From contig CP054837.1 in NCBI GenBank assembly GCA_028768525.1, positions 1,391,622 to 1,455,621 on the forward strand: a stretch of 64,000 nucleotides of DNA. Reading direction: 5' to 3'. Made by a program: the position numbers and the translations under genes. How positions within the stretch are numbered: position 1 is the stretch's first letter; every line of letters starts with the position of its first letter. Positions 6,195 through 26,232 of the stretch are shown piece after piece. This stretch comes from Desulfobacter sp. GTDB taxonomy: Bacteria > Desulfobacterota > Desulfobacteria > Desulfobacterales > Desulfobacteraceae. The notes below the pieces were generated by a model. The model was not told the origin of the DNA and did no database searches. It saw only the letters and a program-made list of their open reading frames with translations.

Positions 6195-6911
6195 TCATAT
6201 CTGCTTAATATTTTTTTCCCGGTTCATTCGCTCAATACTTAAGATGGCATGTTTTTTCACATTGGTGATATGCCGGCTCAGCACCTCGGCTGCCCCATCC
6301 GCATTTCCTGCGGCAATATGCTCGTAAAGGCGCATATGTTCGTCGTCCACGGTGTCCATGGGCGTCACAAAAAGAATATTTCCCCGGTATTTCAGATAAA
6401 GCAGGTCAAACAGGAATTTTAATGTATTGATCCGGATCTGGTTGCCCGAGAGTTCGGCCAGAGTCAGGTGAAACTCCATATCCTTGAGAAGCCGGTCCTT
6501 GAGAAAGATATCCCGTACCGCGTCCAGATGGTTGTCCAAGGCTTTTTTAAGCCGTTTAAGCCGGGTCTTGGTCATCCTGGCGACGGTGGCGGGCAGCAGG
6601 GAGACCTCAATAAGCTCCCTGAACTCGTAGATTTCGGTGATCTCTTCCAGGCTGATGTTCTCCGTGTAATACCCCCGGTTGGGTTCATGGCGGACCAGGC
6701 CCTGGAACTCCAGCCGCTTGAGGGCCTGGATCACCGGGGTGGTGCTCATGTCCAGCCGCTTGGCCAGATCGCCGTATGATATCTTCTGGCCGGGAATGAT
6801 TTCATTGAGAAAAAACATCCGCCGGATGCCCATATAGGCTTCCTGGGTAAAATCTTCTTTTGTTTTTTTCTTCTTCGCTGTCGTTTTTTTAGCGGTTCTA
6901 TTGCTTGTCAT
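6195..6911 (-). CDS. GntR (FCD-type) transcriptional regulator
   Basis: N-terminal wHTH (LAKRLDMSTTPVIQALKRLEFQGLV) plus FCD (DMEFHLTLAELSGN). Confidence 0.9.
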   Translation of the reverse strand: MTSNRTAKKTTAKKKKTKEDFTQEAYMGIRRMFFLNEIIPGQKISYGDLAKRLDMSTTPVIQALKRLEFQGLVRHEPNRGYYTENISLEEITEIYEFRELIEVSLLPATVARMTKTRLKRLKKALDNHLDAVRDIFLKDRLLKDMEFHLTLAELSGNQIRINTLKFLFDLLYLKYRGNILFVTPMDTVDDEHMRLYEHIAAGNADGAAEVLSRHITNVKKHAILSIERMNREKNIKQI

Positions 6912-7117: not shown

Positions 7118-8233
7118 ATGGCATTTGCATTTATGGAAGGCAATGAAGCCGTTGCCAGGGGGGCCATGGCAGCGGGCTGCAACTTCTTTGCCGGCTATCC
7201 CATCACCCCGGCCACCACCATATTCAACAACATGCTTAAAATGCTGCCCCCCACGGGAGGCATCTGTGTCCAGGGTGAAGACGAAATTGCCTCCATGGGG
7301 TATTGCATCGGTGCGGCCATGGCCGGTAAAAAGGTGCTCACCGCCACCTCGGGGCCGGGCATCAGCCTCTATTCCGAACATATTTCCTTTGCCATCGGCA
7401 GCGAAATCCCCATGGTCATCGCCGATGTCCAGCGCCTGGGACCCTCCACGGGCTCGGCCACCCGGGGCGCGGACTCGGATATCCAGTTTCTCCGCTGGGG
7501 CTCCACTTCCGGGGCCCCGGTCATTGTTCTGGCCCCCAAGGATGTGAAGGACTGCTATGCCTTGACAGTGCACGCCTTTAACTATGCCGAAGAATTCCGC
7601 TGCCCCGTATTCATCGCCTCCAACAAGGAAATCGGCATGACAAAGGAGAGCTTTGACATGGACGCCGTCCGACTGCCGGAACGGGTCGAACGGAACCGGT
7701 TTGAGGGGGAAAACTTCATCCCCTTTGCCGCGGAACCGGACAAGGCTCCGCCCTTTTTGCCCATCGGCGGGAAAACCCTGGTCCGCCAGACCTCGTCCAC
7801 CCACGGACCGGACGGGTATATCACCATTGATCCCAATACCATTGCCGCCTGCCAGGACCGGCTGAGAAATAAGATCCATGCCAAACGGAACGAAATCTCC
7901 CTTTACGAGGAAAACCAGGTGCCGGATTCAGACACCCTGGTCATCTCCTACGGCATTACCTCAAGGGCAGTTGAAGATGCGGCCGCAGCCATGGCCCAAA
8001 AGGGGCGGCCCGTATCCACCCTCTCCCTGAAAACCCTGTGGCCAGTTCCCGAACAGGTGCTTACGGAAGCGGCCCAGCGGTTTAACCGCATTGTGGTGAT
8101 TGAGATGAACCTGGGACAATACGTCAATGAAATCCGCCGGGTGCTCCAGGGCAAAAAAGTTGATTTTTACGGACAGATGAACGGGGTATTGATTCCGCCG
8201 GCAAAAATTATGGAGGCCATTGAAAATGACTAG
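7118..8233 (+). CDS. 2-oxoacid:acceptor oxidoreductase alpha subunit
   Basis: GNEAVARGA, FFAGYPITPAT, EDEIAS, TATSGPG and QRLGPSTG motifs. Confidence 0.92.
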   Translation: MAFAFMEGNEAVARGAMAAGCNFFAGYPITPATTIFNNMLKMLPPTGGICVQGEDEIASMGYCIGAAMAGKKVLTATSGPGISLYSEHISFAIGSEIPMVIADVQRLGPSTGSATRGADSDIQFLRWGSTSGAPVIVLAPKDVKDCYALTVHAFNYAEEFRCPVFIASNKEIGMTKESFDMDAVRLPERVERNRFEGENFIPFAAEPDKAPPFLPIGGKTLVRQTSSTHGPDGYITIDPNTIAACQDRLRNKIHAKRNEISLYEENQVPDSDTLVISYGITSRAVEDAAAAMAQKGRPVSTLSLKTLWPVPEQVLTEAAQRFNRIVVIEMNLGQYVNEIRRVLQGKKVDFYGQMNGVLIPPAKIMEAIEND

Positions 8234-9515
8234 TTTTTTAAATAACAACCGCCCCCCGGTCTTCTGCCCGGGATGTACCCATGAGCGCATCACCAAAGAG
8301 CTGGACAAAACCCTGGTCAACCTGGGGCTGGAGGCGGATAAAACCGTCATCGTTACGGACATCGGCTGTTCCGGCCTCTTTGACACCTTTTTCAACGTCC
8401 ACGCCCTCCACGGGGTCCACGGCCGTGCCCTGACCTATGCCGCCGGCCTCAAGCTGGCCGATCCGTCACTGACAGTCATCGTCACCATGGGAGACGGAGG
8501 CCTGGGCATCGGCGGGGCCCATGTGCTGGCCGCCTGCCGTAAAAATCTGGACCTCACCCTCATCATCCTCAACAATTTCAACTTCGGCATGACCGGGGGC
8601 CAGTACTCGTCCACCACCCCCACCGATGCCGTGGTGGGCTCGGAATTCCTCAACCAGGCGGAAATCCCCATTGATATCTGCCGGGTGGCCAAGGCCGCCG
8701 GCGCCACCTATGTTTCCCGGTATTCCGGCCACGACAGCGGCCTTTGTGATGAATTCGGCCGGGCCATCCGCCATAAAGGACTCGCCGTGGTGGAAACCTT
8801 AGGCATGTGCACAGGCCGGTATACCAAGCGGAATAAGCTCACCCCCAAGGCCATCGATGAAATGATCGAAAAACTGCCCAGGGAAACCGGCCTGGTCAAG
8901 GAGAACCTGCGTCCGGAATACGGGGAGCAGTACCGGGCCCTGGCAGCGGAAAAACAAAAATTCCCCGCCCCCCTGGTCATTGAAAAAAGCTATTCACTTG
9001 AAAACCCCCGGCGGCAGGAAGTGGTCATCCTGGGATCGGCGGGCATGAGAATTGTCACGGCCGGGGATATTGTCTGCTATGCCGGCATCTCCGCCGGCCT
9101 CAACGCCTCCATTAAAAACGACTACAATATTACCGTGCTCAGGGGGCAGTCGGTTTCCGAAATCCTGCTTTCCCCGGATAACATCGGCTATACCGGCCTT
9201 GAATCCCCGGCCGTGGTCCTGGCCCTCAGCGACGAAGGGGTGGCCAGGCGGCAGAAAATCTTTGCGGGCCTTTCCCCGGACACCTTTATTCTAAAAGAAA
9301 AAAGCGTGGCCATTCCCTATACCAGGGCCCGGGTGGAGGAGGTGGATTTCAAGGCCATGAAAATCCGGAAACCCGACTGGGCTTTGGCCTCCCTGGGTAT
9401 CCTGGCCAGAAAAGAACTGGTGCTGACCCGGGATATGCTGGTGACGGCCCTCAAATCCCGGTTCAATGAAAAGGTATTTGCCCTGGCCATGGAAACCATC
9501 GATAAAGTTATTTAG
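8226..9515 (+). CDS. 2-oxoacid:acceptor oxidoreductase beta subunit fused to a gamma-like domain
   Basis: FCPGC, DIGCS, GDGG and GMTGGQ (TPP-binding), then C-terminal GSAGMRIVTAG...RGQSVSE gamma/POR-like domain; ATG at 8226 overlaps the alpha stop. Confidence 0.85.
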   Translation: MTSFLNNNRPPVFCPGCTHERITKELDKTLVNLGLEADKTVIVTDIGCSGLFDTFFNVHALHGVHGRALTYAAGLKLADPSLTVIVTMGDGGLGIGGAHVLAACRKNLDLTLIILNNFNFGMTGGQYSSTTPTDAVVGSEFLNQAEIPIDICRVAKAAGATYVSRYSGHDSGLCDEFGRAIRHKGLAVVETLGMCTGRYTKRNKLTPKAIDEMIEKLPRETGLVKENLRPEYGEQYRALAAEKQKFPAPLVIEKSYSLENPRRQEVVILGSAGMRIVTAGDIVCYAGISAGLNASIKNDYNITVLRGQSVSEILLSPDNIGYTGLESPAVVLALSDEGVARRQKIFAGLSPDTFILKEKSVAIPYTRARVEEVDFKAMKIRKPDWALASLGILARKELVLTRDMLVTALKSRFNEKVFALAMETIDKVI

Positions 9516-9621: not shown

Positions 9622-10338
9622 ATGTACGGTCACCCCTCTGCAGTCAAGCCCTCCCCCCGGCACTTGTCCACGGGCAGGGTTCCTTTTTGGCTGAGGCAGA
9701 AATCCCTGATATCCGTATCTGCCCATACCCTCCGTCCGGGCGGTCTCACCCTCACCCGGCGGGCTGTGGAAGTCTGTGATTTCAAGCCCGGGGACAGGAT
9801 CCTTGATGTGGGATGCGGCTACGGCATGACACTGACCTATCTGCTTGAACACCACGGAATCCGGGGAACAGGCATAGACCCCGATCCCGGAATTATCCCG
9901 GGCATGGGCCAGGCCCCCGCGCCCCGGCACCCCGGCCCGGCCCCCGCCGTTCTCAGGGGCGCCCTGCCCTCACTGCCTTTCTTGCCCGAAACCTGGACCG
10001 GAATCTTTTGCGAATGCGTACTCTCCCTCTCCCCTGACCCGGCGGCCTGGCTCTCTGAATGCCATCGTCTCCTGGCGCCCAACGGCAAACTGGTGCTCAC
10101 GGATCTCTACATTAGAAAATGGTCGCCGCAGCGCTGTAAGGCGCCCGGGCCGGATGACGGGGAAGGCGCCTGTGCCGCCGGCGCCCGTACGCTCATGGAA
10201 ATGATGACGGACATTGAAAAAACCGGATTCAAAATCGATATTCTTGAAGACCATACCGGCCTGCTCTCCCAGCTGGGCACCCCCAGCGTGAATAACAAAA
10301 CCGGATATTGCATGATACTTGCCGGGAAATACCATTAA
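9622..10338 (+). CDS. Class I SAM-dependent methyltransferase (DVU_1556-like)
   Basis: LRPGGLTLT, ILDVGCGYG, FCECVLS and GKLVLTDLY motifs; TAAGGAG 8 nt before ATG. Confidence 0.8.
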   Translation: MYGHPSAVKPSPRHLSTGRVPFWLRQKSLISVSAHTLRPGGLTLTRRAVEVCDFKPGDRILDVGCGYGMTLTYLLEHHGIRGTGIDPDPGIIPGMGQAPAPRHPGPAPAVLRGALPSLPFLPETWTGIFCECVLSLSPDPAAWLSECHRLLAPNGKLVLTDLYIRKWSPQRCKAPGPDDGEGACAAGARTLMEMMTDIEKTGFKIDILEDHTGLLSQLGTPSVNNKTGYCMILAGKYH

Positions 10339-10378: not shown

Positions 10379-12529
10379 TTATTTCAGGGCCCGGAAGGCC
10401 TCAACATCGGCGGCCAGCCTTTCCCTCAAGGGCGTGGGCGCACTGCAGGCGGCAAGGACATACTCCGCCGTATTGAGAATGCTCTTCCACCGGGGCCGTG
10501 CAGGCAGGGACTCCAGGGAAAGGTATTTATCAAGGGTCTGGGTCCTGACCCATCCGTCCTTTTCGATGTATACATTCCACAGCCCGGATTTTTCTGCCAT
10601 TTCCGCCTTGGAAGTTCCGGTGGAAACCGACCAGTACTCAATGGACCGGTTCATGATATGAACGGCCAGGGACCGCTTGTCAGCTGTTGCAGACGGCCCC
10701 GGGGAAGGAAGCCGGTTTAAAAGCCGGTCAATGGATTTCAGGGTACCCTCCCCCCGGCCCGGCACCGCCAAATGATCCAACAGCGCCTCAAACTTCATCA
10801 TCCGTTCCCGGTTCAGATTCAGCCGTTCAATGAAGGATGCCGATGGCAGGTCCCCCTCTCCGCCGTTCATCCCACCGGCGGGTTTCAACACCATAAGGCG
10901 GAAGGCCTCCTCTTCCAGGTCCAATGGGGATATCACAACATCCACGGACACAGGGGCCCGGTCCGGCAGATGGATCTCGATGCCGCTGAGGCTGGAGGCA
11001 GGGGAGGACAGGCAGGGAACCAGAGGTGCAAGGCATGGGATCTCCTTGAATGAGGAAAGGGCGGCTGTCCCCAGAATCCGGTCCGCCGACTGCCCGGTAA
11101 AGGTCTCAAATGCCCTGTTGACAACCCCGATTTCCCCAGCCCCGTTCACGCCGATCAGGGCGTCATCCACCCGGTCGAGCATGGATGAGAGCCGCCGCTG
11201 CATCAGCCGCAACTCCAATTCGCGCTTTTCCCGCCGCCGAAGTTTCAGGGTCAGGGCATCGACTGCGGCAAAAGCCGTTGAAAACCGCAGGGTGATGACA
11301 AAGGAATGAAACAGGATGAAAATCAGAATCCCAAGGGGCACCAGCCGGGTGGTATCCAGGATATGAAGGTCAGAAAGCACGTCATTGACCGCAGTAAGGG
11401 CAAGAATCAAATATCCGGGAAAGAGAAAACGGGCTGTTTTTTCCCCCTGCATCCACCGTTTGACCAGCCGGGCAAAGACGTAGAGCATTGCACTGAGAGT
11501 CACCGGCATGAAGCCCAGGACCACAGGATCGTAGGCTTTTGTACCGGGTGTCGCAAGAAGATATAAGACAAACACCCCGCCAAGGCCGCCGTAGCATTTG
11601 TTTATTACTGGGGCATAAGGTTCCGGAAACATCCTGTGAAAAAACATGACCAGCAGCGGGGCGGCCAGCCCAAAAGGCAGAAGGGTCATGTCAATGGAAA
11701 GCCGCCAGGGAAGTCCTGGAAAAAGATAGGCCATGAGGCATCCGCCGTTCACCCCGAATAAGGTCTGGACGGCCAAGAGGAGGGCATAGGCGCCGAATAT
11801 CATCGAAATCTGCTCCTGACGGCGCACCAGGTAAATCAGGATGTGGTAGATGCCGATGATCATCAGGCCGGCCCCAAGCACGCCGGCAGTAATCCACTGC
11901 CGGTCCGCCATTCGCCGGATCCCGGATTCGGTTCCCAGCCACACCGGCGTATTAATGCCGCCCTGGGAATTATGGAAATTGGAAACCTGGATCAGAATGT
12001 CCAGCACCCCGTTGTCCGGCGGCGGAAAGCATAAGGCCAGGGCGTGTTCAACAGGCTGTTCGCTCTTTTTGTCGGCGCCGGGCATTCCCCTGGACACCAG
12101 AAGACGGCCGTTTACAAACACCTGCCCTGCTGAAAGAATATCGTTGATGAACAGGCCGCCGACACCTTTTCCGTCAAGGCCGGTCACACGCAGCCCATAG
12201 GTGGCAAAGCCGGTTTTTCCACCCGGCCCGCCGGGGGTATGTTTCCACAACCCGGGCACCGGGTAGTATGCCCGGGCCGCCGCCGGTGTGTCCGGGGCAA
12301 CCCTTTCGGGCCCCATAAATTTTCCCCAGTAAAAGGCCCAGTCACCGTCAAGGCGGACCGGCCCCTCTGCTTCAAAATCCCATTTTTGCAGATCCAACTG
12401 CCCCTTTTCAGCCCGGGGCAGGAGGGCAGCGGAACGGCAGCCGGTGGCCCCAGCAAGGGCCAGCAAGATAGCCATACACAAAAAGACTGCCCGAAAAGGG
12501 CCTGATGTTCTAAGGATACCGGGATTCAT
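10379..12529 (-). CDS. 7TM-DISM membrane sensor with PAS and a probable ChiS-family DNA-binding domain
   Basis: Periplasmic DISM-type domain (LDGDWAFYW...GFATYGL), seven hydrophobic helices, PAS (VNGAGEIGVVNRAFETFTG), C-terminal RTQTLDKYLS..LPARPRW; no HisKA, HATPase or GGDEF motif. Confidence 0.7.
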   Translation of the reverse strand: MNPGILRTSGPFRAVFLCMAILLALAGATGCRSAALLPRAEKGQLDLQKWDFEAEGPVRLDGDWAFYWGKFMGPERVAPDTPAAARAYYPVPGLWKHTPGGPGGKTGFATYGLRVTGLDGKGVGGLFINDILSAGQVFVNGRLLVSRGMPGADKKSEQPVEHALALCFPPPDNGVLDILIQVSNFHNSQGGINTPVWLGTESGIRRMADRQWITAGVLGAGLMIIGIYHILIYLVRRQEQISMIFGAYALLLAVQTLFGVNGGCLMAYLFPGLPWRLSIDMTLLPFGLAAPLLVMFFHRMFPEPYAPVINKCYGGLGGVFVLYLLATPGTKAYDPVVLGFMPVTLSAMLYVFARLVKRWMQGEKTARFLFPGYLILALTAVNDVLSDLHILDTTRLVPLGILIFILFHSFVITLRFSTAFAAVDALTLKLRRREKRELELRLMQRRLSSMLDRVDDALIGVNGAGEIGVVNRAFETFTGQSADRILGTAALSSFKEIPCLAPLVPCLSSPASSLSGIEIHLPDRAPVSVDVVISPLDLEEEAFRLMVLKPAGGMNGGEGDLPSASFIERLNLNRERMMKFEALLDHLAVPGRGEGTLKSIDRLLNRLPSPGPSATADKRSLAVHIMNRSIEYWSVSTGTSKAEMAEKSGLWNVYIEKDGWVRTQTLDKYLSLESLPARPRWKSILNTAEYVLAACSAPTPLRERLAADVEAFRALK

Positions 12530-12818
12530 GTTCAGCTCAGCAAAGTTTCCATCTCGGTTTTACAATTTCAACAGCACATGCACGGCAACTGCATTACCCT
12601 CTGGGTTATTTTTTGTCAAGGATACACGAACCTGCATACCGATCCCCATGCAAACGGCAACTTCCGGGTCTTGGCAGTGAGGGCCCGCCGTTCAAGGCCG
12701 GGATCTTGCCTCTCTTTCAGCCCCCTAATTAAAGGAAAAAACTTGCCAAATATCCCGGAGTAAGTTTATTCTCCAATATCTTTATTTTGCACGGTGCAGT
12801 TTAACCGAATCAACGGAA

Positions 12819-13562
12819 TTGAATCAACAAGGTTCAAAAGTGAAATCATCCCTTATAATCATAATATGCCTGCTATGCTGCACAACGGCATCCCGCGCCA
12901 ATGGCCTCATGGAATTATCAAGTCTCAAAGATCCGGTTTCAGAAGTGTCCGAAAGAATTTTAACACAGGCATATAAGCGAATCGGCATCACCCTTAAAAT
13001 ACGAAAATTCCCTGCAGAAAGGGCTTTGCTCGCATCAAACGCCGGCAGCACCGACGGAGAGGTGAACCGGATACGGGGAATCGATAAAAAATATGCCAAT
13101 CTGATCATGATCCCCACACCAGTCAACTATTTTGAAGGCGTCGTATTTACAAAAAATTTACCCTTCACCCTAAACGGATGGGACAGCCTCAGACCCTACA
13201 GGATTGTAATGCGAATCGGAAGTAAGTTCGCTGAAAAAAATACCCAAGATATGACCACCATCAAAGTGCCGACCTATGGCATGGCGTTTCACCTGCTGGA
13301 CATAAACAGGGCTGATATTTGTTTAGCATCCCGTTTGACCGGGCTGTTACAGATAAAGAAACTTCATTTAATGGGTGTAAAGGCCATGGAACAGCCGTTA
13401 GTAAAAAGCCAATTGTATCATTATGTACACAAAAAGAATAAAAATATTATACCGAAAATCAATGCGTCGCTGATTAAAATGCACCAGGAGGGATTAATAG
13501 AAAAAATCAGGGCCCAATACATAGAGGCAATCACAACCATAGGCGGTGCTGTGAAATCATAA
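12819..13562 (+). CDS. Orphan periplasmic solute-binding protein (family 3-like)
   Basis: Signal peptide; PAERAL..SNAGSTDGEVNR and LYHYVHKKN motifs; TTG start is uncertain. Confidence 0.75.
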   Translation: MNQQGSKVKSSLIIIICLLCCTTASRANGLMELSSLKDPVSEVSERILTQAYKRIGITLKIRKFPAERALLASNAGSTDGEVNRIRGIDKKYANLIMIPTPVNYFEGVVFTKNLPFTLNGWDSLRPYRIVMRIGSKFAEKNTQDMTTIKVPTYGMAFHLLDINRADICLASRLTGLLQIKKLHLMGVKAMEQPLVKSQLYHYVHKKNKNIIPKINASLIKMHQEGLIEKIRAQYIEAITTIGGAVKS

Positions 13563-13729: not shown

Positions 13730-15190
13730 ATGAAGCCTATGACGATTTTCACCCGCCTGGTCATCGGAAATATTATTATCCTGGTGCTGATCCTGGGCAT
13801 GGGTGCCCTGGTATCCTACGACCTGATGCGCCTCCAGTCACTCAACCGCGATATCCTTGGGCGGCAGCAGGAAAGCCTGGCCGGGACAGAACAGATTGAA
13901 GAAAATTTCCAGCGCCTGGTGAGCTTTGATGAAAAATTCTTCGTCACCCGGGACCGGGATTATTTTAACCGGTTCAACCAGCAAAAGATACTGGTGGACA
14001 ACGCATTCAAGACCCTCTATCCCTTTTTGGAAACCATTGGGCAGAAATCAGGCTTTGACCGCACTGTGAATTCATTCCAGGCCTATCTGGCCTGGTTCAC
14101 CGCCAATGCAAAACCGGTGACAGAGGATACGGTGCCGGAGTTCGACACCCTTTCCCGCCAGCGCGGCCCAATGAAGGTCAGGGTACTCACCGGCCTCATG
14201 GCCATGGAGGCGGCAACCCGCAGCCTGGTGACCCGAAAAACCGAACGCTCAGGCGAAATGACCCGGCAGATATTCTTTATCACGGTAGTGACCACGCTTC
14301 TGACCGTATTCACAGGAATGATGATCACCCTGATCAACACCCGGTCCGTCCGCAATGCCGTGGGCCGGCTCCAGGTACAGACCCGGGACATCTCCCGGGG
14401 CCGGTTCGAAGAAATCAAAAACATCCAGGGGCCCAAAGAGATTCAGGATCTGGCCGACCATTTCAACCTGATGTGCCGGCGCCTCAGTGAACTGGATGAA
14501 CTCAAGGCAGATTTCATCAACCATGTCTCCCATGAGCTGCGGACCCCCATGACTTCAATCAAAGAGGCGGCCGTGATGCTTTCAAAAGGGTATTACGCAA
14601 ATCAGCCCCAAAAGCAGTCCCAGCTCTTTGAACTGATCAACGGAGAATGCGCAAGGCTGCTCAACTCCGTCATGCGCCTCCTTGATTTTTCAAAAATGGA
14701 AGCCGGAAAAATGGAATACCGCAAGGATCCTGTCCAACTGCCGGATGTGCTAAGAAAATCCATATTACGGCTGGCCCCCCTGGCGCAGAAAAAAAAAATT
14801 TCCCTGGAATTCGAACCGCCCCGGTCTGACCTTCCCCGGATCTGCGGGGATGAGGACAGGATGATTGAGGTGATGGACAATCTGATCGGCAACGGATTAA
14901 AGTTCACCCCCGAAGGCGGCACCGTCACAGTGGACTGCAGACTTGAGGGACAGGGGGATATTCTAAAGGTCAGGGTGACAGACGACGGCCCCGGAATTGC
15001 CCTTGATCATCTTGAAAAGATTTTCTATAAATTCAACCAGATTGACTGCGACCAGAACACTCGGATGGGGACCGGACTGGGACTGTCAATATCAAAATAC
15101 ATCATCAGTGCACACGGAGGAGACATATGGGCAGAAAATGTGGAAGCAGGCGGCACCCGGGTTTCGTTTACCTTGCCTGCATCATCCTGA
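13730..15190 (+). CDS. HAMP-domain sensor histidine kinase (GlrK/QseE-like)
   Basis: Two TM helices, HAMP, SHELRTPMTSI H-box, NLIGNGLKF, DDGPGI and GTGLGL. Confidence 0.92.
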   Translation: MKPMTIFTRLVIGNIIILVLILGMGALVSYDLMRLQSLNRDILGRQQESLAGTEQIEENFQRLVSFDEKFFVTRDRDYFNRFNQQKILVDNAFKTLYPFLETIGQKSGFDRTVNSFQAYLAWFTANAKPVTEDTVPEFDTLSRQRGPMKVRVLTGLMAMEAATRSLVTRKTERSGEMTRQIFFITVVTTLLTVFTGMMITLINTRSVRNAVGRLQVQTRDISRGRFEEIKNIQGPKEIQDLADHFNLMCRRLSELDELKADFINHVSHELRTPMTSIKEAAVMLSKGYYANQPQKQSQLFELINGECARLLNSVMRLLDFSKMEAGKMEYRKDPVQLPDVLRKSILRLAPLAQKKKISLEFEPPRSDLPRICGDEDRMIEVMDNLIGNGLKFTPEGGTVTVDCRLEGQGDILKVRVTDDGPGIALDHLEKIFYKFNQIDCDQNTRMGTGLGLSISKYIISAHGGDIWAENVEAGGTRVSFTLPASS

Positions 15191-15636
15191 CGGGGACACT
15201 GGTATCGGGCTGTGCCCTGAAGGCGACCTTCAAGAGCGCTCCCTCCCCCGATCAGATGCGCCTGAACCGCCACCTGGTCGATTACGAGACCCAGATTCAG
15301 GATAAAGCGTTCCAAGAGGCCGCCCGGACAAACAGCCTGATGCTCAAACTGGTTCAAAGCCGGGAAGGCGAGCGGTCAGCTGCCGAATCCCAGGAAATTA
15401 TACTGCTTCGCACCGGGAGGGCCCTTTTAAACCAGATCTTATCCGACCAGGCCAGAAAGGCGGATCTTGCGGCCCGGGCCGATAAAACAACCCAGCTATT
15501 GACGACAGAGGCGGATGCCGTAAAAGCCCTTGAAACTGAAATCAAACGGCTGAAAGCGGCCGTCCGCAGTCTCGAACAACAGAACAACGGCCTGGAAAAA
15601 CAGCTGGAACGAATGAAACAGATTGACCTCAAATAA
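15127..15636 (+). CDS. Coiled-coil lipoprotein (QseG/YfhG-like position)
   Basis: GGAGGAG RBS; lipobox LVSG-C; heptad-rich C-terminus ending LKQ-like QLERMKQID. Confidence 0.7.
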   Translation: MGRKCGSRRHPGFVYLACIILTGTLVSGCALKATFKSAPSPDQMRLNRHLVDYETQIQDKAFQEAARTNSLMLKLVQSREGERSAAESQEIILLRTGRALLNQILSDQARKADLAARADKTTQLLTTEADAVKALETEIKRLKAAVRSLEQQNNGLEKQLERMKQIDLK

Positions 15637-15646
15637 AGGAGCGGCC

Positions 15647-16999
15647 ATGGGCACCATACTTGTCGCAGACGATGACCCGGGCATACTGGGCATACTGAAA
15701 ATGAGGCTTGAACTGGAGGACTACAAGGTTATTGCAGTGGAAACCGCGACGGCCGCCCTCACTGCGGTGGAAACCCATACCCTGGAACTGGCCATCATTG
15801 ATCTGCAACTGGGCAATGAAAACGGCATCCAACTCATGAAACAGGTAAAAAAAATCCGGCCCGACCTGCCCGTTATCATCCTCACCGCCCACGGCACCAT
15901 TAAGAATGCGGTGGAGGCGATTCAAAAGGGGGCCTATACCTACCTGACAAAACCATTTGACGACGGAGAACTGATCCACCACGTCCAGCTGGGATGCGAA
16001 AAGAACAGGCTCACCGAAGAAATCAACGCGCTAAAGCAAATGCTCCAGAGCAAATTCGGCTTTGACAATATCATTGCAAAAGATGAAAAAATGATTGCCG
16101 TTCTCAAATCGGTGATCCAGGCCTCCCAGATCGACTCCACCATCCTCCTCCAGGGGGAAAGCGGCACGGGAAAAGAACTCATGGCCAAATCCATCCACGT
16201 GGCCAGCGCAAGGAGGGATGCGCCCTTCATTGCCGTAAACTGTGCCGCCATTCCCGAAGCCCTCTTTGAAAGCGAATTGTTCGGGGTGAAAAAAGGGGCA
16301 TTCACCGGGGCGGATAAAGATAAAATTGGATTTCTTGAAAAGGCGGAAAACGGCAGTTTTTTTTTCGATGAGATTTCGGAAATCCCCATCTCCACCCAGG
16401 CCAAGCTGCTCAGGGCACTCCAGGAAAATGAATTCTATCCCCTGGGCGGCAATGAGAAAATCAAACTCAAGGCAAGGATCATCGCCGCAACCAACACCAA
16501 CCTGGAAGAAGAGGTCAAAAAAAACCGGTTCCGACAGGATCTTTATTACCGGATCCGGGTGATCCCCATCACCCTGCCCCCGTTAAGGGAGCGACGCGCC
16601 TGTATTCCGCTGCTGACCCATTGTTTTCTGGCGCAGTTCAGCCGGGAAATGAACAGGAACGTTACCCGGTTTTCAGAAGCGGCCATGACAAAGCTGTGCC
16701 AGGCCCCGTGGCCGGGAAATATCCGGGAGCTTAAAAATGTGGTGGAGTATTGTGTGGCCATGTCCCAGACCAAAACCATTCCCGAGGAACTGGTACTCAT
16801 GGGCGAAGAGCCTCCCCGGACCGATCTGAAGCCCTTTAAGGAGGCCAAGCGGGATTTTGAAAAAAAATACATCATCGAGCTGCTGACCCTGACCTCAGGC
16901 AATGTGAGCCAGGCCGCAAAAATGGCCGGCAAATACCGGGCGGATTTCTACGAGCAGATGAAAAAATGCGACCTCAATGCTGAAGACTTCAGGGGATGA
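15647..16999 (+). CDS. Sigma54-dependent response regulator (GlrR/QseF-like)
   Basis: Receiver domain, GESGTGKE, GAFTGA, WPGNIREL; C-terminal GNVSQAAKMAGKYRADFY; AAGGAG RBS before ATG 15647. Confidence 0.92.
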   Translation: MGTILVADDDPGILGILKMRLELEDYKVIAVETATAALTAVETHTLELAIIDLQLGNENGIQLMKQVKKIRPDLPVIILTAHGTIKNAVEAIQKGAYTYLTKPFDDGELIHHVQLGCEKNRLTEEINALKQMLQSKFGFDNIIAKDEKMIAVLKSVIQASQIDSTILLQGESGTGKELMAKSIHVASARRDAPFIAVNCAAIPEALFESELFGVKKGAFTGADKDKIGFLEKAENGSFFFDEISEIPISTQAKLLRALQENEFYPLGGNEKIKLKARIIAATNTNLEEEVKKNRFRQDLYYRIRVIPITLPPLRERRACIPLLTHCFLAQFSREMNRNVTRFSEAAMTKLCQAPWPGNIRELKNVVEYCVAMSQTKTIPEELVLMGEEPPRTDLKPFKEAKRDFEKKYIIELLTLTSGNVSQAAKMAGKYRADFYEQMKKCDLNAEDFRG

Positions 17000-17031: not shown

Positions 17032-18300
17032 TCAGGCCAGATGGTCCACCGCCCGGTATGCCGAGGCGATGGAAATTCCTGATCCTGATTTTTCCCGTTT
17101 CCAGTCCTGGTGGGCCAGGATGGAACCGGCGGCATAGAGTTTGGGATGGAAGACCTTGCCGCCCCGGCCCAGGGGCCTGAAGCATTCATCGGTTTCAAGG
17201 CCGGACCGGTTCACCCCATGACCCTTTGGATTGAAAAAATCACGGCGGAACCATTCTCTCCGGTCCCTGGGCTGGGTGACAGGCAGATCAAAGAGCATTT
17301 CCCTGATATTTCCTGACGCATTGACCCCGAGCCCCCGGCCCATGAACCGGCCTGTGGCCAGTATCAGGTTTTCGGCCCGGACCTCCCGGACAGCAATCCC
17401 TTCGCTCACCTCAAAACTGAATCCTGCTTCCCCATGGGTAATATCTTTTACCATCACCGGATAATGGCGGACCTTACTTGCCGGCAGCTGCCCGAGAAAA
17501 GCCTCTTTGGTACGCATGCCCGTAACGGACGGTGCCAGGGTGGGGATTTCAAATACGGTTTTGCCCAGGGCCTTCTCGATCTTGTTTTTCAGTTCCTCAA
17601 ACCGGTAAATGCCCAGAATGGCCGGCAGGCCCACGGTATCATAACCGGCAGTATGGGGCCGGAGCACCCCGATAAACCGGGAAAGGATATCCGGGGTTTC
17701 AAGGTCCCAGGTCAGGCGCTCGCACATGAGGTCCCCTGCGGTCTCCCGGCCCGGGAATTCCACGGTGACACTGCCCATGCAGGGGTGGTGTTTTTTCAAA
17801 CTCTGGGCCATCTGCCTGGCGCCGAACCCTTTGAGGCCCCGGATGTCCACAATGAGAATTTTCTTTTTTTCCGCCAGGGCCCGGGTGCCGGCATACATGG
17901 CTGAGGGGACGCACCAGGTGGACTTGAGGGTGCCTGCCGGGGTGATGATTTTCTGGTTGGTTTCAGGGGTGCAATGGTATTGGATGCCGGACGTATTCAT
18001 GAATCCGGTAAACTCTTCAAAGCCCTGGACAATATCCTCCCGGCCCACTTTGGCATAGGGATGATCGGGCTGCAATTTCGTCAGGGCCGCAATTCCCTCA
18101 AAAGGGTTGTCAAAGGCCGGCATATCCGAACCGGGGATCCGTGAAAAAAGATCCAGGCAGCCGCTGGAAAAAGAGATTTCAGAGGCCTTGCCCACGCATA
18201 CCACGGAAAGCCCCCGGTTGGCGGCGAAAATGGCGGCGGCCATGCCGGCCATGCCGGCACCGATGACGGCGACATTACAATTAACTGGCTTATTCATCAT
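17032..18300 (-). CDS. glpB: Anaerobic glycerol-3-phosphate dehydrogenase subunit B
   Basis: GAGMAG, SSGCLDL, TPAGTLKST, FEIPTLAPSVTGMR, LATGRF, AAGSIL and SGSGISI motifs. Confidence 0.9.
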   Translation of the reverse strand: MMNKPVNCNVAVIGAGMAGMAAAIFAANRGLSVVCVGKASEISFSSGCLDLFSRIPGSDMPAFDNPFEGIAALTKLQPDHPYAKVGREDIVQGFEEFTGFMNTSGIQYHCTPETNQKIITPAGTLKSTWCVPSAMYAGTRALAEKKKILIVDIRGLKGFGARQMAQSLKKHHPCMGSVTVEFPGRETAGDLMCERLTWDLETPDILSRFIGVLRPHTAGYDTVGLPAILGIYRFEELKNKIEKALGKTVFEIPTLAPSVTGMRTKEAFLGQLPASKVRHYPVMVKDITHGEAGFSFEVSEGIAVREVRAENLILATGRFMGRGLGVNASGNIREMLFDLPVTQPRDRREWFRRDFFNPKGHGVNRSGLETDECFRPLGRGGKVFHPKLYAAGSILAHQDWKREKSGSGISIASAYRAVDHLA

Positions 18301-19837
18301 CCTCTTCCATTCCAAACAGGGCGCATAAAAAAGATTCCTGGAGTTCCACCCGCATCAGCTCCTTGTCCCGGACCAGGGGCATAAACCCCTTCCACCGTTC
18401 ATTGACAAACTCACGGACCTGGCCCATGCCCTGGGAATCGGCCAGTTCCCCCTTGCGGTAGAGATAGGCGGCCAGGCGGAAAGAACAAAAGGTGCCCTGG
18501 CAGGGGCCTTTGCCGATACGGCTTCTCCGCCCCACCTCTTCCAGGGTGGGGATGGTTCCTTCGGCCTTGAGGTCGTTGACGATTTCATCCACCATGTATT
18601 CGGAGACCATCTCGCATTCGCAGATCAGGGTGTCCCGCCGTTCCGGATTGGCCATCCACACCCGGGGGGATTTGCCCGGTTCGGTCCATTCCCCCTTGGT
18701 GCTGGGGGGCAGTGTTTCCGTTTCGGTAAGGCAGGGATTGGTGTTTTTAAGTCGCCGGGCCACAATATCCGAGGCCTTTTCCGCCATGAGCCTGAAGGTG
18801 GTGAGCTTGCCCCCGGTGATGGTCACCAGGTTGTCGATGCCGTCTTCAGTGTGGGTTTTCAGGGTATAGTTCCGGCTGATGCTCCGGCCGTCCCCCCCCG
18901 CCGTCCGGACCAGGGGGCGGACGCCGGCATAGGCGCGGATATACCGGGTGGTGGCCAGTTTGGGCACCATCTGGGCCCCTTCCTTTATGATGGCATCCAC
19001 CTCTTCCACCGTGGGCCGGATGTCATCCAGGGAGTCGATTTCAACGGAGGTGGTGCCGATGATGGAGACGGTGCCGCCGGGCACCAGGATATCGGCATCC
19101 GAGGCCGGCCGCAGCCGGTTGATTACCGCCTGGTTGATCCGGCTCTGGGTGACCAGAAGAGACCCTTTTGAGTAACTCATGGGGATTGATGCACCGGCCA
19201 TGGCCGCCACATTGTCGGCCCAGGCGCCGGAGGCATTGACAAACTCCTGGGCCTTTATGGTTAATTTTTCACCGGTCCGGCGGTTTTCCACTTGGGCTGT
19301 ATGGATTTTCCCATTGCGCATTTCAAACCCGGTCAGCTTCATATTCCGAAGAATGGCCGCCCCCTTTGACTGGGCATGGGCCGCATTGTCCAGGGAAAGC
19401 ATAAAGGGGTCCACAACCGCGTCGGCCACCTCAAAGGCGGCCTTGAGATTTTCAGCCAGACAGGGTTCCTTTTGCCTGGCCGCATCCACAGATATTTCTT
19501 TGCAGGGCAGGCCGTATTTGACACAGAGTTTGGGGAATTGGGCAATATAATCGTCATCGTCCTGATCCACCGCCACAAAAAGCCCGCCTGTATCTTCAAT
19601 GCAGTGGGGGGCCAGACGCTTGAGCAGCAGGTTTTCACGGTGGCACTCCACCGCCGCCTCGCCGTCCTTGAAGATATACCTGGCCCCTGAATGGAGCAGG
19701 CCGTGGTTGGCACCGGATGCACCGGCATTGATATCCTTCTGGTCAATGAGGATGCAGGAAATCCCTCTTAGGGTCAGGTCCCTGGCAATGCCGGTTCCCG
19801 TGGTGCCGCCCCCTATGATTAATACCTCGGTTTCCAA
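18290..19837 (-). CDS. glpA: Anaerobic glycerol-3-phosphate dehydrogenase subunit A
   Basis: IGGGTTG, GASGANHGLLHSGARY, YAGVRPL, GGKLTTFRLMAE; C-terminal ICECE...GPCQGTFC. Confidence 0.93.
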   Translation of the reverse strand: METEVLIIGGGTTGTGIARDLTLRGISCILIDQKDINAGASGANHGLLHSGARYIFKDGEAAVECHRENLLLKRLAPHCIEDTGGLFVAVDQDDDDYIAQFPKLCVKYGLPCKEISVDAARQKEPCLAENLKAAFEVADAVVDPFMLSLDNAAHAQSKGAAILRNMKLTGFEMRNGKIHTAQVENRRTGEKLTIKAQEFVNASGAWADNVAAMAGASIPMSYSKGSLLVTQSRINQAVINRLRPASDADILVPGGTVSIIGTTSVEIDSLDDIRPTVEEVDAIIKEGAQMVPKLATTRYIRAYAGVRPLVRTAGGDGRSISRNYTLKTHTEDGIDNLVTITGGKLTTFRLMAEKASDIVARRLKNTNPCLTETETLPPSTKGEWTEPGKSPRVWMANPERRDTLICECEMVSEYMVDEIVNDLKAEGTIPTLEEVGRRSRIGKGPCQGTFCSFRLAAYLYRKGELADSQGMGQVREFVNERWKGFMPLVRDKELMRVELQESFLCALFGMEEDDE

Positions 19838-19908
19838 TTTGGTTTTTCTACCCTTATCTTAATGTCCGGTAGTTCCCGTTCCTTATAATGATACAAAGGA
19901 TTGTACAG

Positions 19909-19970
19909 GATCATGTTTGTTCGTTTTTATTCCTATTTCGCCGAATAAAAGATCATATATGTTCTTTTTT
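19909..19970. promoter_or_regulatory. Candidate GlpR/DeoR operator in the divergent glpA / ABC intergenic region
   Basis: Direct repeats GATCATnnnTGTTCnTTTTT at 19909 and 19951 (42-bp period) flank TTTTATTC-N10-GAATAAAA. Confidence 0.45.
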
Positions 19971-20180
19971 TATCCCTTTTGCTTTTAAATTTCAATATTT
20001 ATTATCATTTTTTATCTTTTTTTTTCTTGACTTCACTACAAAACTCTAATATCAAAATTTGATGATGGGAAAATTTAACGTCTGCTTACCCTTACACTGA
20101 TGCTGGTTTGCTCGCTGTTTTTTCGTAACTCACGGGGATAAAAGCGGATACAATTATTTTCAGGAGGCATTGTCTGAAAA

Positions 20181-21290
20181 ATGGGGCTTACCCTAGAAAA
20201 AATTAACAAAGTGGTGGAGGGCGAAACCCACCTTGCCGACATCAACCTTGATCTGCAGTCCGGATCCAGGTATGTCATTCTCGGCAGGACCCTGGCCGGC
20301 AAAACATCCCTTTTGCGAATCATGGCCGGGCTGGACCGCCCCACATCGGGAAGGATCCTGGCCAACGGCCAGGATGCAACAGGGGTATCGGTACGGAAGC
20401 GGTCCGTGGCCATGGTATACCAGCAGTTTATCAACTATCCCTCGTTTACCGTTTACAATAATATTGCATCCCCCCTCAAGGTGGCCGGGGTCGCCGCGGA
20501 TGAAATCGAGGCCAGGGTCAGGGAAACGGCAAAGCTGCTCCACCTGGAGCCCATGCTGGACCGGCTGCCCTCGGAACTTTCCGGCGGACAGCAGCAGCGG
20601 GTGGCCATTGCCCGGGCCCTGATGAAGGATACAGACCTTCTCCTCCTTGACGAGCCCCTGGTCAACCTGGATTACAAGCTGAGGGAAGAGTTGCTGGAAG
20701 AACTCCAGGCCATATTCGAAAAGCGGGAATCCGTCGTGGTCTATACCACCACCGAGCCCTCCGAAGCCCTGAAGCTGGGAGGGAACATCGTGGTGATGGA
20801 CGAAGGGCGGGTGCTCCAGACCGGCCCCACGGCCAGAGTTTACAGGAATCCTGCCACCACCAAGACCGCGGAGCTTTTTTCAGATCCGCCCATCAACTTC
20901 TTTACCGGCGACATCGATACCGGAAACATCACCATCGGACGGGATCTGAAAATTGAAAACCGGGCCCCCTTCAACACCCTTGCCCCGGGAAAATACAAAT
21001 TCGGTATCCGGCCCAACCACCTCTATCTCAAACCCCAGGCCCAAGATGATATCACCATTGATTCCAGGGTTGAAATTTCCGAAATCAACGGCTCTGAAAC
21101 CTTTATCCACTTCAAATTTGACGATACCCGGGCAGTGATCCATGAGGTGGGCATAGACAGCCGGAAAATCGGTTCAGAGATCACCGCCTATGTCAATCCG
21201 AAAAAATTCTTTGTCTATTCCGAGGCAGGTGAACTGCTGATATCACCGGACGGCCTGCCACAAGGCGATTCGGCCCAGCCGGCACAATAA
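20181..21290 (+). CDS. ABC transporter ATP-binding subunit (glycerol importer, GlpS-like)
   Basis: GRTLAGKT Walker A, LSGGQQQ, LLLDEPLVNLDYKLRE, TOBE domain. Confidence 0.88.
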   Translation: MGLTLEKINKVVEGETHLADINLDLQSGSRYVILGRTLAGKTSLLRIMAGLDRPTSGRILANGQDATGVSVRKRSVAMVYQQFINYPSFTVYNNIASPLKVAGVAADEIEARVRETAKLLHLEPMLDRLPSELSGGQQQRVAIARALMKDTDLLLLDEPLVNLDYKLREELLEELQAIFEKRESVVVYTTTEPSEALKLGGNIVVMDEGRVLQTGPTARVYRNPATTKTAELFSDPPINFFTGDIDTGNITIGRDLKIENRAPFNTLAPGKYKFGIRPNHLYLKPQAQDDITIDSRVEISEINGSETFIHFKFDDTRAVIHEVGIDSRKIGSEITAYVNPKKFFVYSEAGELLISPDGLPQGDSAQPAQ

Positions 21291-21299
21291 GGAGAACCA

Positions 21300-22385
21300 A
21301 TGGCGCAGATAAATTTAGATGAAATTGCCCACAGCTATCTCCCGGAGACCCAGAAGGAAGATGAGTATGCGCTCAAGCGTATCCACAACATCTGGGATGA
21401 CGGGGGAGCCTACGCCCTGCTGGGGCCGTCGGGCTGCGGCAAAACCACATTGCTCAATATTATTTCAGGCCTGCTCAAACCCAGCCGGGGCCGGGTAAAA
21501 TTCGGGGAGATTGATGTCACCGACCTTCCCCCGGAGAAACGAAACATCGCCCAGGTCTTCCAGTTCCCCGTGCTTTACGACACCATGACGGTTTTCGACA
21601 ACCTGGCCTTTCCCCTGCGCAACCGGGGATTTGACGCCGAGTACATCAACCGCCGGGTGAGGGAAGTGGCCGAAATCCTGGACCTGGAGCCCTTTTTAAA
21701 AAAACGGGCCGAAGGCCTGGGTGCGGACGCCAAGCAGAAAATATCCCTGGGCCGGGGGCTGGTCCGAGAAGATGTGGCCGCCATCCTCTTTGACGAACCG
21801 CTTACGGTTATTGACCCCCAGCTCAAATGGGAACTGCGGTGCAAACTCAAGGAAATCCACGAAAAGCTCAAGCTGACCCTGATCTACGTCACCCACGACC
21901 AGATCGAAGCCCTGACCTTTGCCGATAAAATCATTGTCATGTACGAAGGGTATATCGTCCAGGTGGGCACCCCCCAGGAACTCTTTGAATACCCCAACCA
22001 CAAGTTCGTCGGCTACTTCATCGGGAGCCCCGGCATGAACTTCATGCCCTGCACCGTGGAAGGGAATCATATCAAAGTGGGCGAGGCCCTGATACCGGCG
22101 GATGAAAAAACCGTCCAGCTGGCAAGCGCCGCCAAGGGCAGCCTGGAAATGGGCATCCGCCCCCTTTACCTCAACATTTCCCAGACGGCCCAGCCCGACG
22201 GATTTGAGGTGCCTGTCACCCGGATTGAGGATCAGGGCAGCCACAGGATTATTTCCGTTGATTTCCAGGGGAACACCCTCAAGGCAAGAATCTCTGAAAA
22301 CGATCCCATTCCCGAATCAACGGCCTGGATCCGCTTTCCCAAAGAATGGATCCGCGTATTTGCGGATGAACATTTACTCAAGTAA
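21300..22385 (+). CDS. Second ABC ATP-binding subunit (glycerol importer)
   Basis: GPSGCGKT, variant signature LGADAKQK, ILFDEP, YVTHDQ. Confidence 0.88.
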   Translation: MAQINLDEIAHSYLPETQKEDEYALKRIHNIWDDGGAYALLGPSGCGKTTLLNIISGLLKPSRGRVKFGEIDVTDLPPEKRNIAQVFQFPVLYDTMTVFDNLAFPLRNRGFDAEYINRRVREVAEILDLEPFLKKRAEGLGADAKQKISLGRGLVREDVAAILFDEPLTVIDPQLKWELRCKLKEIHEKLKLTLIYVTHDQIEALTFADKIIVMYEGYIVQVGTPQELFEYPNHKFVGYFIGSPGMNFMPCTVEGNHIKVGEALIPADEKTVQLASAAKGSLEMGIRPLYLNISQTAQPDGFEVPVTRIEDQGSHRIISVDFQGNTLKARISENDPIPESTAWIRFPKEWIRVFADEHLLK

Positions 22386-22399
22386 GGAGCACGCATTAA

Positions 22400-23275
22400 A
22401 TGAAAAAATGGCAAGATAATAAAGGATGGCTCTTCATCCTGCCGGTTTTTTTGATCGTTGCCTTCAGTGCCATCGTGCCCCTGATGACTGTGGTCAATTA
22501 TTCCATCCAGGATATATTCGGACCCGGTCAGCGGGTGTTTGTCGGAACAGAATGGTTCAAGGAAGTACTAACGGATCAGCGTCTCCATGAAGCCTTGTGG
22601 CGGCAGCTGCTCTTCTCCGGCCTGGTGCTGCTCATTGAAATGCCCTTAGGCATCGGCATAGCCCTGCTCATGCCGGCCAAAAAAGGGTTTGCCGCCTCGG
22701 TATGCCTGGTCACCCTGGCCCTGCCCCTGCTCATCCCATGGAACGTCATCGGCACCATCTGGATCATCTTCACCCGTCCGGACATCGGGCTGATGGGGGC
22801 CACCATCAACGCCCTGGGACTGACCTTCGACCACACGGCCTCGGGGCTCCATGCCTGGATCACCCTCATGCTTATGGAAGTCTGGCATTGGACACCGCTG
22901 GTGGCCCTGCTGGCCTATGCCGGCCTGCAGTCCATCCCCCCGGCCTATTACCAGGCCGCCAAAATCGACGGGGCCTCCTCCTGGTCCATCTTCCGTTATA
23001 TCCAGTTGCCCAAAATGAGGGGGGTGCTCACCATCGCCCTGCTGCTGCGGTTCATGGACTCCTTCCTCATTTACGCGGAACCCTTTGTCCTCACCGGCGG
23101 CGGCCCCGGGAACACCACCACCTTTTTGTCCATCTACCTGGTCAAGATTGCCGTCGGGCAGTTTGACCTGGGTCCTGCAGGGGCGTTCTCGCTTATTTAT
23201 TTTCTCATCGTACTATTATTCTGCTACCTGTTCTACCAGGCCCTGCTCAATGTCGGAGGAGGAGAGGAATCATGA
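22400..23275 (+). CDS. Carbohydrate ABC permease
   Basis: Six TM helices; EAA-like loop YYQAAKIDGAS. Confidence 0.9.
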   Translation: MKKWQDNKGWLFILPVFLIVAFSAIVPLMTVVNYSIQDIFGPGQRVFVGTEWFKEVLTDQRLHEALWRQLLFSGLVLLIEMPLGIGIALLMPAKKGFAASVCLVTLALPLLIPWNVIGTIWIIFTRPDIGLMGATINALGLTFDHTASGLHAWITLMLMEVWHWTPLVALLAYAGLQSIPPAYYQAAKIDGASSWSIFRYIQLPKMRGVLTIALLLRFMDSFLIYAEPFVLTGGGPGNTTTFLSIYLVKIAVGQFDLGPAGAFSLIYFLIVLLFCYLFYQALLNVGGGEES

Positions 23276-24069: not shown

Positions 24070-24078
24070 GGAGGCTCC

Positions 24079-24357
24079 ATGAAACTTGACTGGATGGCAT
24101 GGACCATACCTACGGCATGTTTTTTTTCATTCATCGTCCTGATGCTCATCGGAATGACCATCTGGGAAATCAAATCCCCGACGATTAAACGGAAAGGATT
24201 TCTCCCCATTGCCACAACACGGGGGGACAGGCTTTTCGTCGGTCTGCTGGTGACCGCCTATATCCATCTGGCATGGATCGGGCTCACCGAGCTGACCATA
24301 TGGTTTGCCCTCGGCATCTCCCTTGTCTGGATGGCAGTGGTGATGCGCTGGGGTTAG
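24079..24357 (+). CDS. DUF2160 small membrane protein (GlpU-like)
   Basis: WMAWT...RKGFLPIATTRGDRLFVGL signature. Confidence 0.85.
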   Translation: MKLDWMAWTIPTACFFSFIVLMLIGMTIWEIKSPTIKRKGFLPIATTRGDRLFVGLLVTAYIHLAWIGLTELTIWFALGISLVWMAVVMRWG

Positions 24358-24467
24358 AAGTGTTGTGTATGCCCAGGCACCGGCTTTTTTTTTATAGGCC
24401 TTCAAGCCGGTGCCCGGGCGGCTGTTATTCTCAAACCGTTAGCTGAAGGCCTTGGGAGGATTGTCAG

Positions 24468-26171: not shown

Positions 26172-26202
26172 TTCTGCCGTTTTACGGCATCGTCTGAAAA
26201 CC

Positions 26203-26232
26203 CAGGGGGGCATTTATTTTAATGCCCCCCTG
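26203..26232. terminator. Hairpin after the SBP gene
   Basis: 12-bp perfect stem CAGGGGGGCATT / AATGCCCCCCTG. Confidence 0.55.

Follow-up and report, generated by a model that had tools for sequence, protein, structure and literature searches.

How could a membrane receptor that has a periplasmic sensor, seven transmembrane (TM) helices and no kinase, cyclase or phosphatase output convey its signal to the cell interior? The question is raised by one gene in a 64,000-nucleotide stretch of a Desulfobacter sp. genome (hereafter the window; GenBank assembly GCA_028768525.1, contig CP054837.1, positions 1,391,622 to 1,455,621 of the forward strand). The gene is an intact open reading frame (ORF) at window positions 10379-12529 on the minus strand, which begins with ATG, contains no internal stops and encodes a protein of 716 amino acids (aa). 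Its product is best read as a membrane-anchored one-component regulator because its C-terminal domain matches the DNA-binding domain (DBD) of Vibrio cholerae ChiS, because the predicted topology places that domain in the cytoplasm, and because phosphorelay and enzymatic output domains are absent. A preliminary description of this DNA had proposed such a regulator, and homology supports the proposal. In its full form, to which we assign a probability of about 0.8 on sequence, structural models and analogy with ChiS, the reading is that the gene product is a dimeric, membrane-embedded, one-component transcription regulator that is derived from a hybrid kinase and signals through conformational change. 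To our knowledge, ChiS is the only studied protein that bears this DBD.

The public gene call (P0002) is 100% identical to the ORF and comprises 698 aa, as it starts at the internal Met19. Alignment with the closest relative favors the start at Met1; a start at Met19 would drop the n-region of the signal sequence. The C-terminal peptide quoted in the preliminary description occurs verbatim in the minus-strand translation of the ORF.

The C-terminal DNA-binding domain

Among all PDB sequences (177,635), phmmer returns a single significant match, 7KPO chain A (E 2.4e-19, 72 bits), in which residues 618-705 of the protein align with chain residues 8-94. A profile of eight relatives that share its kinase-less architecture (the short forms) matches residues 4-105 of the same chain with an E value of 7e-27. 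7KPO is the DBD of V. cholerae ChiS (ChiS 1024-1129), which suffices for sequence-specific binding to the chb promoter, Pchb, in vitro (PMC8092284) and is both required and sufficient for binding to DNA in vivo (Klancher et al. 2020, PNAS; bioRxiv 10.1101/2020.01.10.902320).

An AlphaFold2 model of the 716-aa protein, built on a 30-sequence alignment, has a mean pLDDT of 84, with most blocks of the DBD at 86-97. In a Foldseek search of the PDB, the top match of the model is again 7KPO (target TM 0.92, rmsd 1.4 A, 105 columns, 37% identity). The predicted domain retains the family's hallmark, a beta hairpin that separates the first and second helices of a trihelical bundle: the hairpin, at about residues 654-662, lies between helices 641-648 and 664-667 and is followed by a helix at 681-694. 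The preliminary description had reported a likeness of the last ~110 aa to the ChiS DBD and had proposed profile and Foldseek comparisons as checks; the likeness proves real on both counts. Judged by sequence and predicted structure, the domain is a member of the ChiS-family DBD group.

Five residues with which ChiS binds DNA were mapped onto the protein by their spacing in the phmmer alignment. Two are identical (ChiS K1078 is K668, and R1090 is R680) and two are conservatively changed (R1068 is K657, and R1092 is K682); the fifth, R1074, is weighed below. Across 19 short and long relatives, the long ones being hybrid kinases described below, the mapped contact positions are nearly invariant together with R662, Q664 and R678. 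No model in Pfam-A (2025 copy) or NCBIfam 20.0 covers residues 600-716. Because neither database contains a model for the ChiS-family DBD, proteins of this type are labeled as 7TM signaling proteins only and are overlooked as transcription factors.

Sensor, membrane and PAS modules

The other modules named in the preliminary description, 7TM-DISM helices and a PAS domain, are also recovered by searches with the same two databases. Pfam PF07695 (7TMR-DISM_7TM) matches residues 216-413 (E 1.7e-23, 84.1 bits against a cut-off of 29) and likewise matches 30 of 30 relatives, a weak Pfam PAS match covers residues 446-488, and NCBIfam adds a PAS “sensory box” alone. HisKA, HATPase_c, Response_reg, HAMP, GGDEF/EAL, cyclase and SpoIIE/PP2C domains are all absent from the protein in both databases at E <= 1, in keeping with the earlier statement that kinase, cyclase and phosphatase outputs are missing; the same searches readily detect histidine kinase (HK) and receiver (Rec) domains in those relatives that carry them. 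Sensor, membrane anchor and a DBD predicted to be cytoplasmic are thus found on one polypeptide that has neither HK nor Rec.

At the N terminus, Gly30 and Cys31 are invariant in 8 aligned short-form relatives, and a loose lipobox pattern is present in 55 of the 67 DBD-bearing 7TMR-DISM relatives with complete N termini; for these reasons the signal, predicted to be cleaved, is likely of the lipoprotein type. These seven-helix receptors may carry an N-terminal lipid, which would be unusual for a polytopic membrane protein.

The presumed sensor that follows is modeled as beta strands from residue 44 to residue 200 (pLDDT mostly 86-93, with less confident loops) and shares homology with domains at the N termini of 7TMR-DISM kinases, SpoIIE phosphatases and one cyclase. 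By Foldseek it resembles the sugar-binding beta-sandwich found at the N terminus of GH2 beta-glucuronidases and galactosidases (E about 1e-4 over 165-200 columns). For 7TMR-DISMED2 (PF07696), the N-terminal extracellular domain of other receptors of this class, Pfam gives no match at E <= 1 in the protein itself and none at E <= 0.01 among 30 relatives. The label “carbohydrate-type” that the preliminary description gave to the sensor therefore stands in part: the models bear it out at the level of fold, from which the identity of the ligand does not follow with certainty, and the match to PF07696 is lacking.

In the model, the TM helices span residues 201-235, 240-258, 275-300, 306-326, 335-360, 364-387 and 397 onward. 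The loop after the first helix, RRQE, is positively charged and fits an N-out, C-in topology. This loop, together with the N-terminal signal, the periplasmic domain and the odd number of TM helices (seven), predicts that the PAS domain and the DBD reside in the cytoplasm. The seventh helix (TM7) continues without interruption through residue 451, and its cytoplasmic extension (residues 426-451) contains the fusion junction at which HisKA-HATPase-Rec sits in the long relatives. Profile matches of the PAS domain include the LOV-type PAS of YtvA (E 1e-5) and FixL. A LOV photoreceptor, suggested by the YtvA match, was considered and rejected, as the LOV-type cysteine motif is not seen in the sequence.

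Table 1. Coordinates of the regulator gene, its predicted domains, the upstream region and related domains in the genus
Feature	Position	Strand	Basis or remarks
Whole ORF	10379..12529	-	716 aa + stop codon at 10379-10381
Signal peptide (putative), residues 1-31	12437..12529	-	basic n-region, hydrophobic core, lipobox-like ATG-C
Periplasmic all-beta domain, jelly-roll-like, presumed ligand sensor, residues 35-200	11930..12427	-	AlphaFold2 model
Seven transmembrane helices (7TMR-DISM_7TM), residues 201-425	11255..11929	-	Pfam PF07695 and AlphaFold2 model
TM7 cytoplasmic extension, predicted signaling helix or coiled coil, residues 426-451	11177..11254	-	model helix 397-451
PAS domain, residues 452-550	10880..11176	-	Pfam/NCBIfam PAS (sensory_box); PAS-like alpha/beta secondary structure in model
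Helical linker, PAS to DBD, residues 562-606	10712..10846	-	least conserved part, 20-43% identity
ChiS-family DNA-binding domain (helix-sheet-helix), residues 612-716	10382..10696	-	phmmer, profile, AlphaFold2, Foldseek
Divergent intergenic region upstream of the gene	12530..12818	.	289 bp
DBD in a same-genus genome	G006:C2:213408-213704		
DBD in a same-genus genome	G009:C1:2141514-2141795		
DBD in a same-genus genome	G024:C1:5624610-5624903		

Family, distribution and probable repeated loss of HK-Rec

When the DBD alone is searched against 1.84 billion representative proteins, it is found in 933 clusters at E <= 1e-3 and in 717 at E <= 1e-10. It is C-terminal in all of the 150 best representative clusters, the position reported for the family (PMC8092284). 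Architectures were assigned with ad hoc jackhmmer profiles for these 150 clusters and for the homologues found earlier. The long form (periplasmic-7TM-HK-Rec-PAS-DBD, about 1140 aa) accounts for 47 clusters, and the short form (periplasmic-7TM-PAS-DBD, about 720 aa), to which the window's protein belongs, for at least 24 (at 50% identity). Shorter arrangements are periplasmic-7TM-DBD (8 clusters, about 540 aa), Rec-PAS-DBD (12 clusters, 357-456 aa) and PAS-DBD (16 clusters, 229-323 aa); some of these shorter “classes” are metagenomic fragments. Most of the remaining clusters are fragments.

The DBD is single-copy in the window's genome. A full-length orthologue is found in none of 24 genomes of the same genus; ORFs of 383-395 aa that end in the DBD (44-48% identical) are present in three of them and, judged by length, are probably soluble Rec-PAS-DBD response regulators. 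In 400 more species sampled evenly from the phylum, the DBD is present in 8 (9 of 401 with the window's genome), which makes it rare, and just one of the 8 has an ORF comparable in length (718 aa). A metagenome contig is the source of the nearest relative (56% identity), and the relatives that have names are metagenome-assembled genomes of the Desulfobacteraceae.

The long and short forms do not separate in phylogeny. A careful, unrooted maximum-likelihood (ML) tree of 14 complete short and 18 long forms, computed on their shared regions (693 columns), interleaves the two, with at least 5 switches forced by starred branches and 7 by parsimony. Monophyly of the short forms is rejected by the approximately unbiased (AU) test (delta lnL 685, p 5.7e-47), and a broader quick tree also interleaves both forms.

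The sites of fusion differ as well. HK-Rec lies in the long forms between a post-TM7 helix, “RFSxAF..VExL...L”, and a pre-PAS helix, “...KENLxLKKELxxREKRE...RRLS”, and the short forms join these helices by at least four distinct junctions. In the window's clade and the P0007 clade the fusion immediately precedes “EKRE”; in the P0010 clade, which retains a further 24 residues, it lies at a “LQLK/LQLQ” stretch that is found in both helices; P0065 and P0055 are fused immediately after “RAYxxL”, and P0093 is fused at a duplicated “LKENN”. Because the junctions differ and the short and long forms interleave, the HK-Rec cassette has probably been lost repeatedly and in frame, with the DBD left nearly invariant. 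Identity of the window's protein to its closest relative is 60% in the periplasmic domain, 65% in the 7TM region, 77% in the signaling helix and 63% in the DBD, and every domain of the short forms stays conserved after divergence to 42-58% identity. The conservation of all remaining domains after the loss of HK-Rec argues against decay. What appears to be new here, on sequence comparison, is that the long and short forms are interleaved and that the phosphorelay cassette has probably been lost several times.

Proposed mechanism

The ancestor of the protein would be a hybrid histidine kinase of the 7TMR-DISM type (HK-Rec-PAS-DBD) from which HK-Rec was lost in frame. An external ligand would alter how the 7TM bundle and the TM7 signaling helix are packed, and this change would be relayed via a PAS dimer to the paired DBDs, altering their orientation or availability. 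The DBDs would bind specific promoter DNA at the membrane and so turn transcription up or down, in the manner of ChiS at Pchb.

Precedent for such a scheme comes from ChiS, which binds DNA directly from the membrane. Neither kinase activity nor phosphorylation is required for ChiS activation, and the sole effect of Rec phosphorylation is inhibitory. ChiS that cannot be phosphorylated is still repressed by CBP, and therefore a phosphorylation-independent, conformational route exists in ChiS. Because HK-Rec is absent from the short forms, they would be confined to this route, which would be the only one that the window's protein uses.

Comparison with known systems

Like V. cholerae ChiS, the protein is predicted to be membrane-embedded and carries a C-terminal PAS domain and helix-sheet-helix DBD (37% identical, 1.4 A); by analogy, it most likely needs no partner response regulator and acts on DNA from its place in the membrane. 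ChiS differs, however, in its two TM helices, its CBP-binding periplasmic domain, HAMP, a histidine kinase and a receiver; in the present protein a signal of the lipoprotein type precedes a beta-sandwich sensor and seven 7TMR-DISM helices, and there is neither HK nor Rec. Because the latter two are absent, the inhibitory phosphorylation switch of ChiS cannot exist here. Nor is the chb operon/CBP context of ChiS found at the locus, where the neighbors are a methyltransferase, an oxidoreductase, an SBP_bac_3-like ORF, a histidine kinase, a sigma-54 response regulator and GlpAB. As HK, Rec, HAMP and the chb/CBP context are all lacking, sequence comparison indicates that the protein is not a ChiS orthologue.

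Its nearest relatives on the tree are the long-form 7TMR-DISM hybrid kinases (e.g., P0004, P0005 and P0008, of about 1130-1170 aa), which share the sensor, 7TM, PAS and DBD and are 41-48% identical over the shared parts. In these proteins, one of which is annotated as “sensor histidine kinase ChiS” by JGI, HisKA-HATPase_c-Response_reg lies between the TM7 and PAS helices, and it is this cassette that is cleanly absent here. RetS and LadS of Pseudomonas aeruginosa also combine a periplasmic beta-sandwich and 7TMR-DISM helices with an output in the cytoplasm; for the latter they use histidine-kinase or receiver modules, and their DISMED2 domains match PF07696. ToxR, TcpP, CadC and TfoS likewise unite a periplasmic sensor, a membrane anchor and a cytoplasmic DBD in one chain without phosphorelay, but they have one or few TM helices and an OmpR-type winged-helix or AraC-type DBD, placed N-terminally or elsewhere, in contrast to the seven-helix receptor before a C-terminal ChiS-type DBD described here, with which they share no homology. 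Transmembrane transcription regulators such as ToxR have been treated as a class (PMC11856585).

The pairing of 7TMR-DISM with the ChiS-family DBD is already known bioinformatically: the legend of Fig. 5A in Klancher et al. (2021, mBio, PMC8092284) places it among the “most abundant architectures”, and the class listed in that legend may or may not include HK-Rec.

Genomic neighborhood

The regulator gene is monocistronic, and its G+C (0.54-0.59) is like that of the flanking genes; a foreign origin was considered and rejected, as composition gives no signal of one. A methyltransferase gene (class I SAM, 9622-10338, plus strand) is convergent with it, 40 bp separating the two 3' ends. Adjoining the methyltransferase is a two-subunit 2-oxoacid:ferredoxin oxidoreductase (POR_N/PFOR_II, then TPP_enzyme_C/POR; 7118-9515, plus strand), beside which lies a GntR/FCD regulator (6195-6911, minus strand).

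The upstream region of the regulator contains AGTTGCCGT twice on the minus strand, at 12582-12590 and 12654-12662, 72 bp apart and with a TTGACA hexamer between the copies. The rest of the 64-kb window contains no further copy; two copies are reached in 5 of 100 shuffles of the window, which makes the statistics marginal, and the pair is absent from the orthologous loci, where it was also looked for. It is put forward as a candidate operator and as a lead only.

On the far side of this region, a divergent ORF (12819-13562, plus strand) with a TTG start encodes 247 aa with a signal-like N terminus. Its match to the solute-binding protein (SBP) family SBP_bac_3 falls below threshold (E 1.2e-4, 22 bits where the cut-off is 26), NCBIfam gives no match, and the G+C of the ORF is 0.43-0.48 against 0.55-0.60 in the flanks. 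Downstream of it are a HAMP histidine kinase (13730-15190) and a sigma-54 NtrC-type response regulator (15623-16999). The divergent SBP gene was considered as a conserved partner of the regulator and rejected, since the window ORF and an SBP fragment at the locus of one short-form relative (L017) are unrelated by tblastn.

Farther along lie GlpB (17032-18315) and GlpA (18290-19837) of anaerobic glycerol-3-phosphate (G3P) dehydrogenase, both above their NCBIfam equivalog cut-offs, and beyond GlpA, within 17032-27032, are two ABC ATPases, two permeases, a 567-aa SBP_bac_1 protein and a DeoR/GlpR-like regulator. At the locus of the closest relative (L016), the region immediately upstream encodes a G3P-dehydrogenase-like enzyme, an FGGY kinase and a FadR-like regulator; the enzyme and the kinase both score under the equivalog cut-offs. 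This glycerol theme (the Glp, ABC transporter and DeoR genes of the window are 4.5-14.5 kb from the regulator) is a weak lead to a link with the regulator.

Same-strand cell-surface genes lie 3' of the regulator in two short-form relatives (L017:10512-11951 and L016:10344-12232); one encodes a YadA-type trimeric autotransporter adhesin and the other an IPTL-CTERM protein with exosortase. There are hints here of possible regulator targets in those two organisms; the surface genes have no counterpart in the window.

Alternative interpretations

Several observations weigh against the interpretation of the protein as a one-component regulator, or against parts of it. The preliminary description had named no characterized example of this architecture, and this holds in the literature searched, as full-text searches found no experimental study of any 7TMR-DISM/ChiS-DBD protein. 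By analogy with ChiS, we infer that a signal could pass to the DBD without a Rec domain; the soluble cytoplasmic domain of ChiS binds DNA and does not activate transcription, and therefore DNA binding alone is no proof of regulation. The loci of four short-form relatives and four genome loci were compared by tblastn with 18 neighbors from the window, and the only neighbors common to the orthologous loci are generic sigma-54 regulators and ABC ATPases; a comparison of six orthologous upstream regions for 9- to 11-mers with one mismatch found no shared motif beyond the level of shuffled sequence. Because the neighboring genes are not conserved and the upstream regions share no motif, no candidate regulon emerges. 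The tree is unrooted, so that loss rather than gain of HK-Rec is an argument from parsimony, repeated gain being the unparsimonious course. Finally, ChiS R1074, which is needed for DNA binding by ChiS, corresponds to Gln664; an invariant arginine, Arg662, lies two residues upstream and may or may not stand in for it.

The last point bears on whether the C-terminal domain binds specific DNA at all. It could instead be a protein-interaction module, contacting RNA polymerase or another regulator, for example, or a non-specific binder of nucleic acid, and ChiS does contact the alpha subunit of RNA polymerase as well. Such a role is nevertheless very improbable: the predicted structure matches a DNA-binding fold very closely, beta hairpin included, and the most conserved of the basic contact residues are kept. 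Across the DBD family K1078 and R1090 are “very well conserved”, and R1074 is only “somewhat conserved” (PMC8092284). A different objection accepts the domain and doubts the signal. The protein could be what is left of a hybrid kinase, decaying or blind to its signal, and either inactive or bound constitutively to DNA as an unregulated membrane tether, given that chitin control in ChiS acts largely via the phosphorylation state of Rec, which is absent here, and that the gene is sporadic, with no full-length orthologue in the 24 genomes of its genus. This is improbable in view of the intact ORF, the conservation of all domains in several independent short-form clades and the recurrence of the short form in numerous clusters; the repression of unphosphorylatable ChiS by CBP, moreover, attests a conformational route.

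The protein might also serve the adjoining two-component system (12819-13562, 13730-15190 and 15623-16999) as an accessory sensor that acts through protein-protein contact in the membrane and has no regulon of its own. The genes are adjacent and have the 289-bp divergent promoter region in common, ChiS itself partners a solute-binding protein, and a divergent SBP_bac_3 fragment occurs at one other short-form locus. Yet this arrangement lacks conservation, in that the SBP-like genes of the two loci are unrelated and the other orthologous loci have no adjacent SBP, kinase or sigma-54 regulator, and the SBP-like ORF of the window has an atypically low G+C and scores under the Pfam threshold; this role is hardly to be expected. 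A conformationally signaling one-component regulator thus remains the preferred reading.

Significance

No new principle is involved, as membrane-bound one-component regulators are known and the domain combination has been listed before; a specialist might find a single point useful, the probable recurrent loss of the phosphorelay cassette. How a membrane sensor governs a ChiS-type DBD is a question under study, for which a kinase-less relative offers a simpler natural system. The short forms could show whether signaling to such a DBD can be purely conformational, and sister pairs of long and short forms (e.g., P0086/P0112 and P0053/P0051) provide ready comparisons. Tentatively, and with the chances judged slightly under even, the short 7TMR-DISM-PAS-DBD proteins may be natural minimal “receptor-to-DNA” transducers that work purely by conformation, the phosphorelay being a dispensable, added brake. 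If this is true, the core path in ChiS-type hybrid kinases would run from the sensor through the signaling helix and the PAS domain to the DBD, and the repeated excision of HK-Rec would show that the phosphorelay is dispensable in these proteins.

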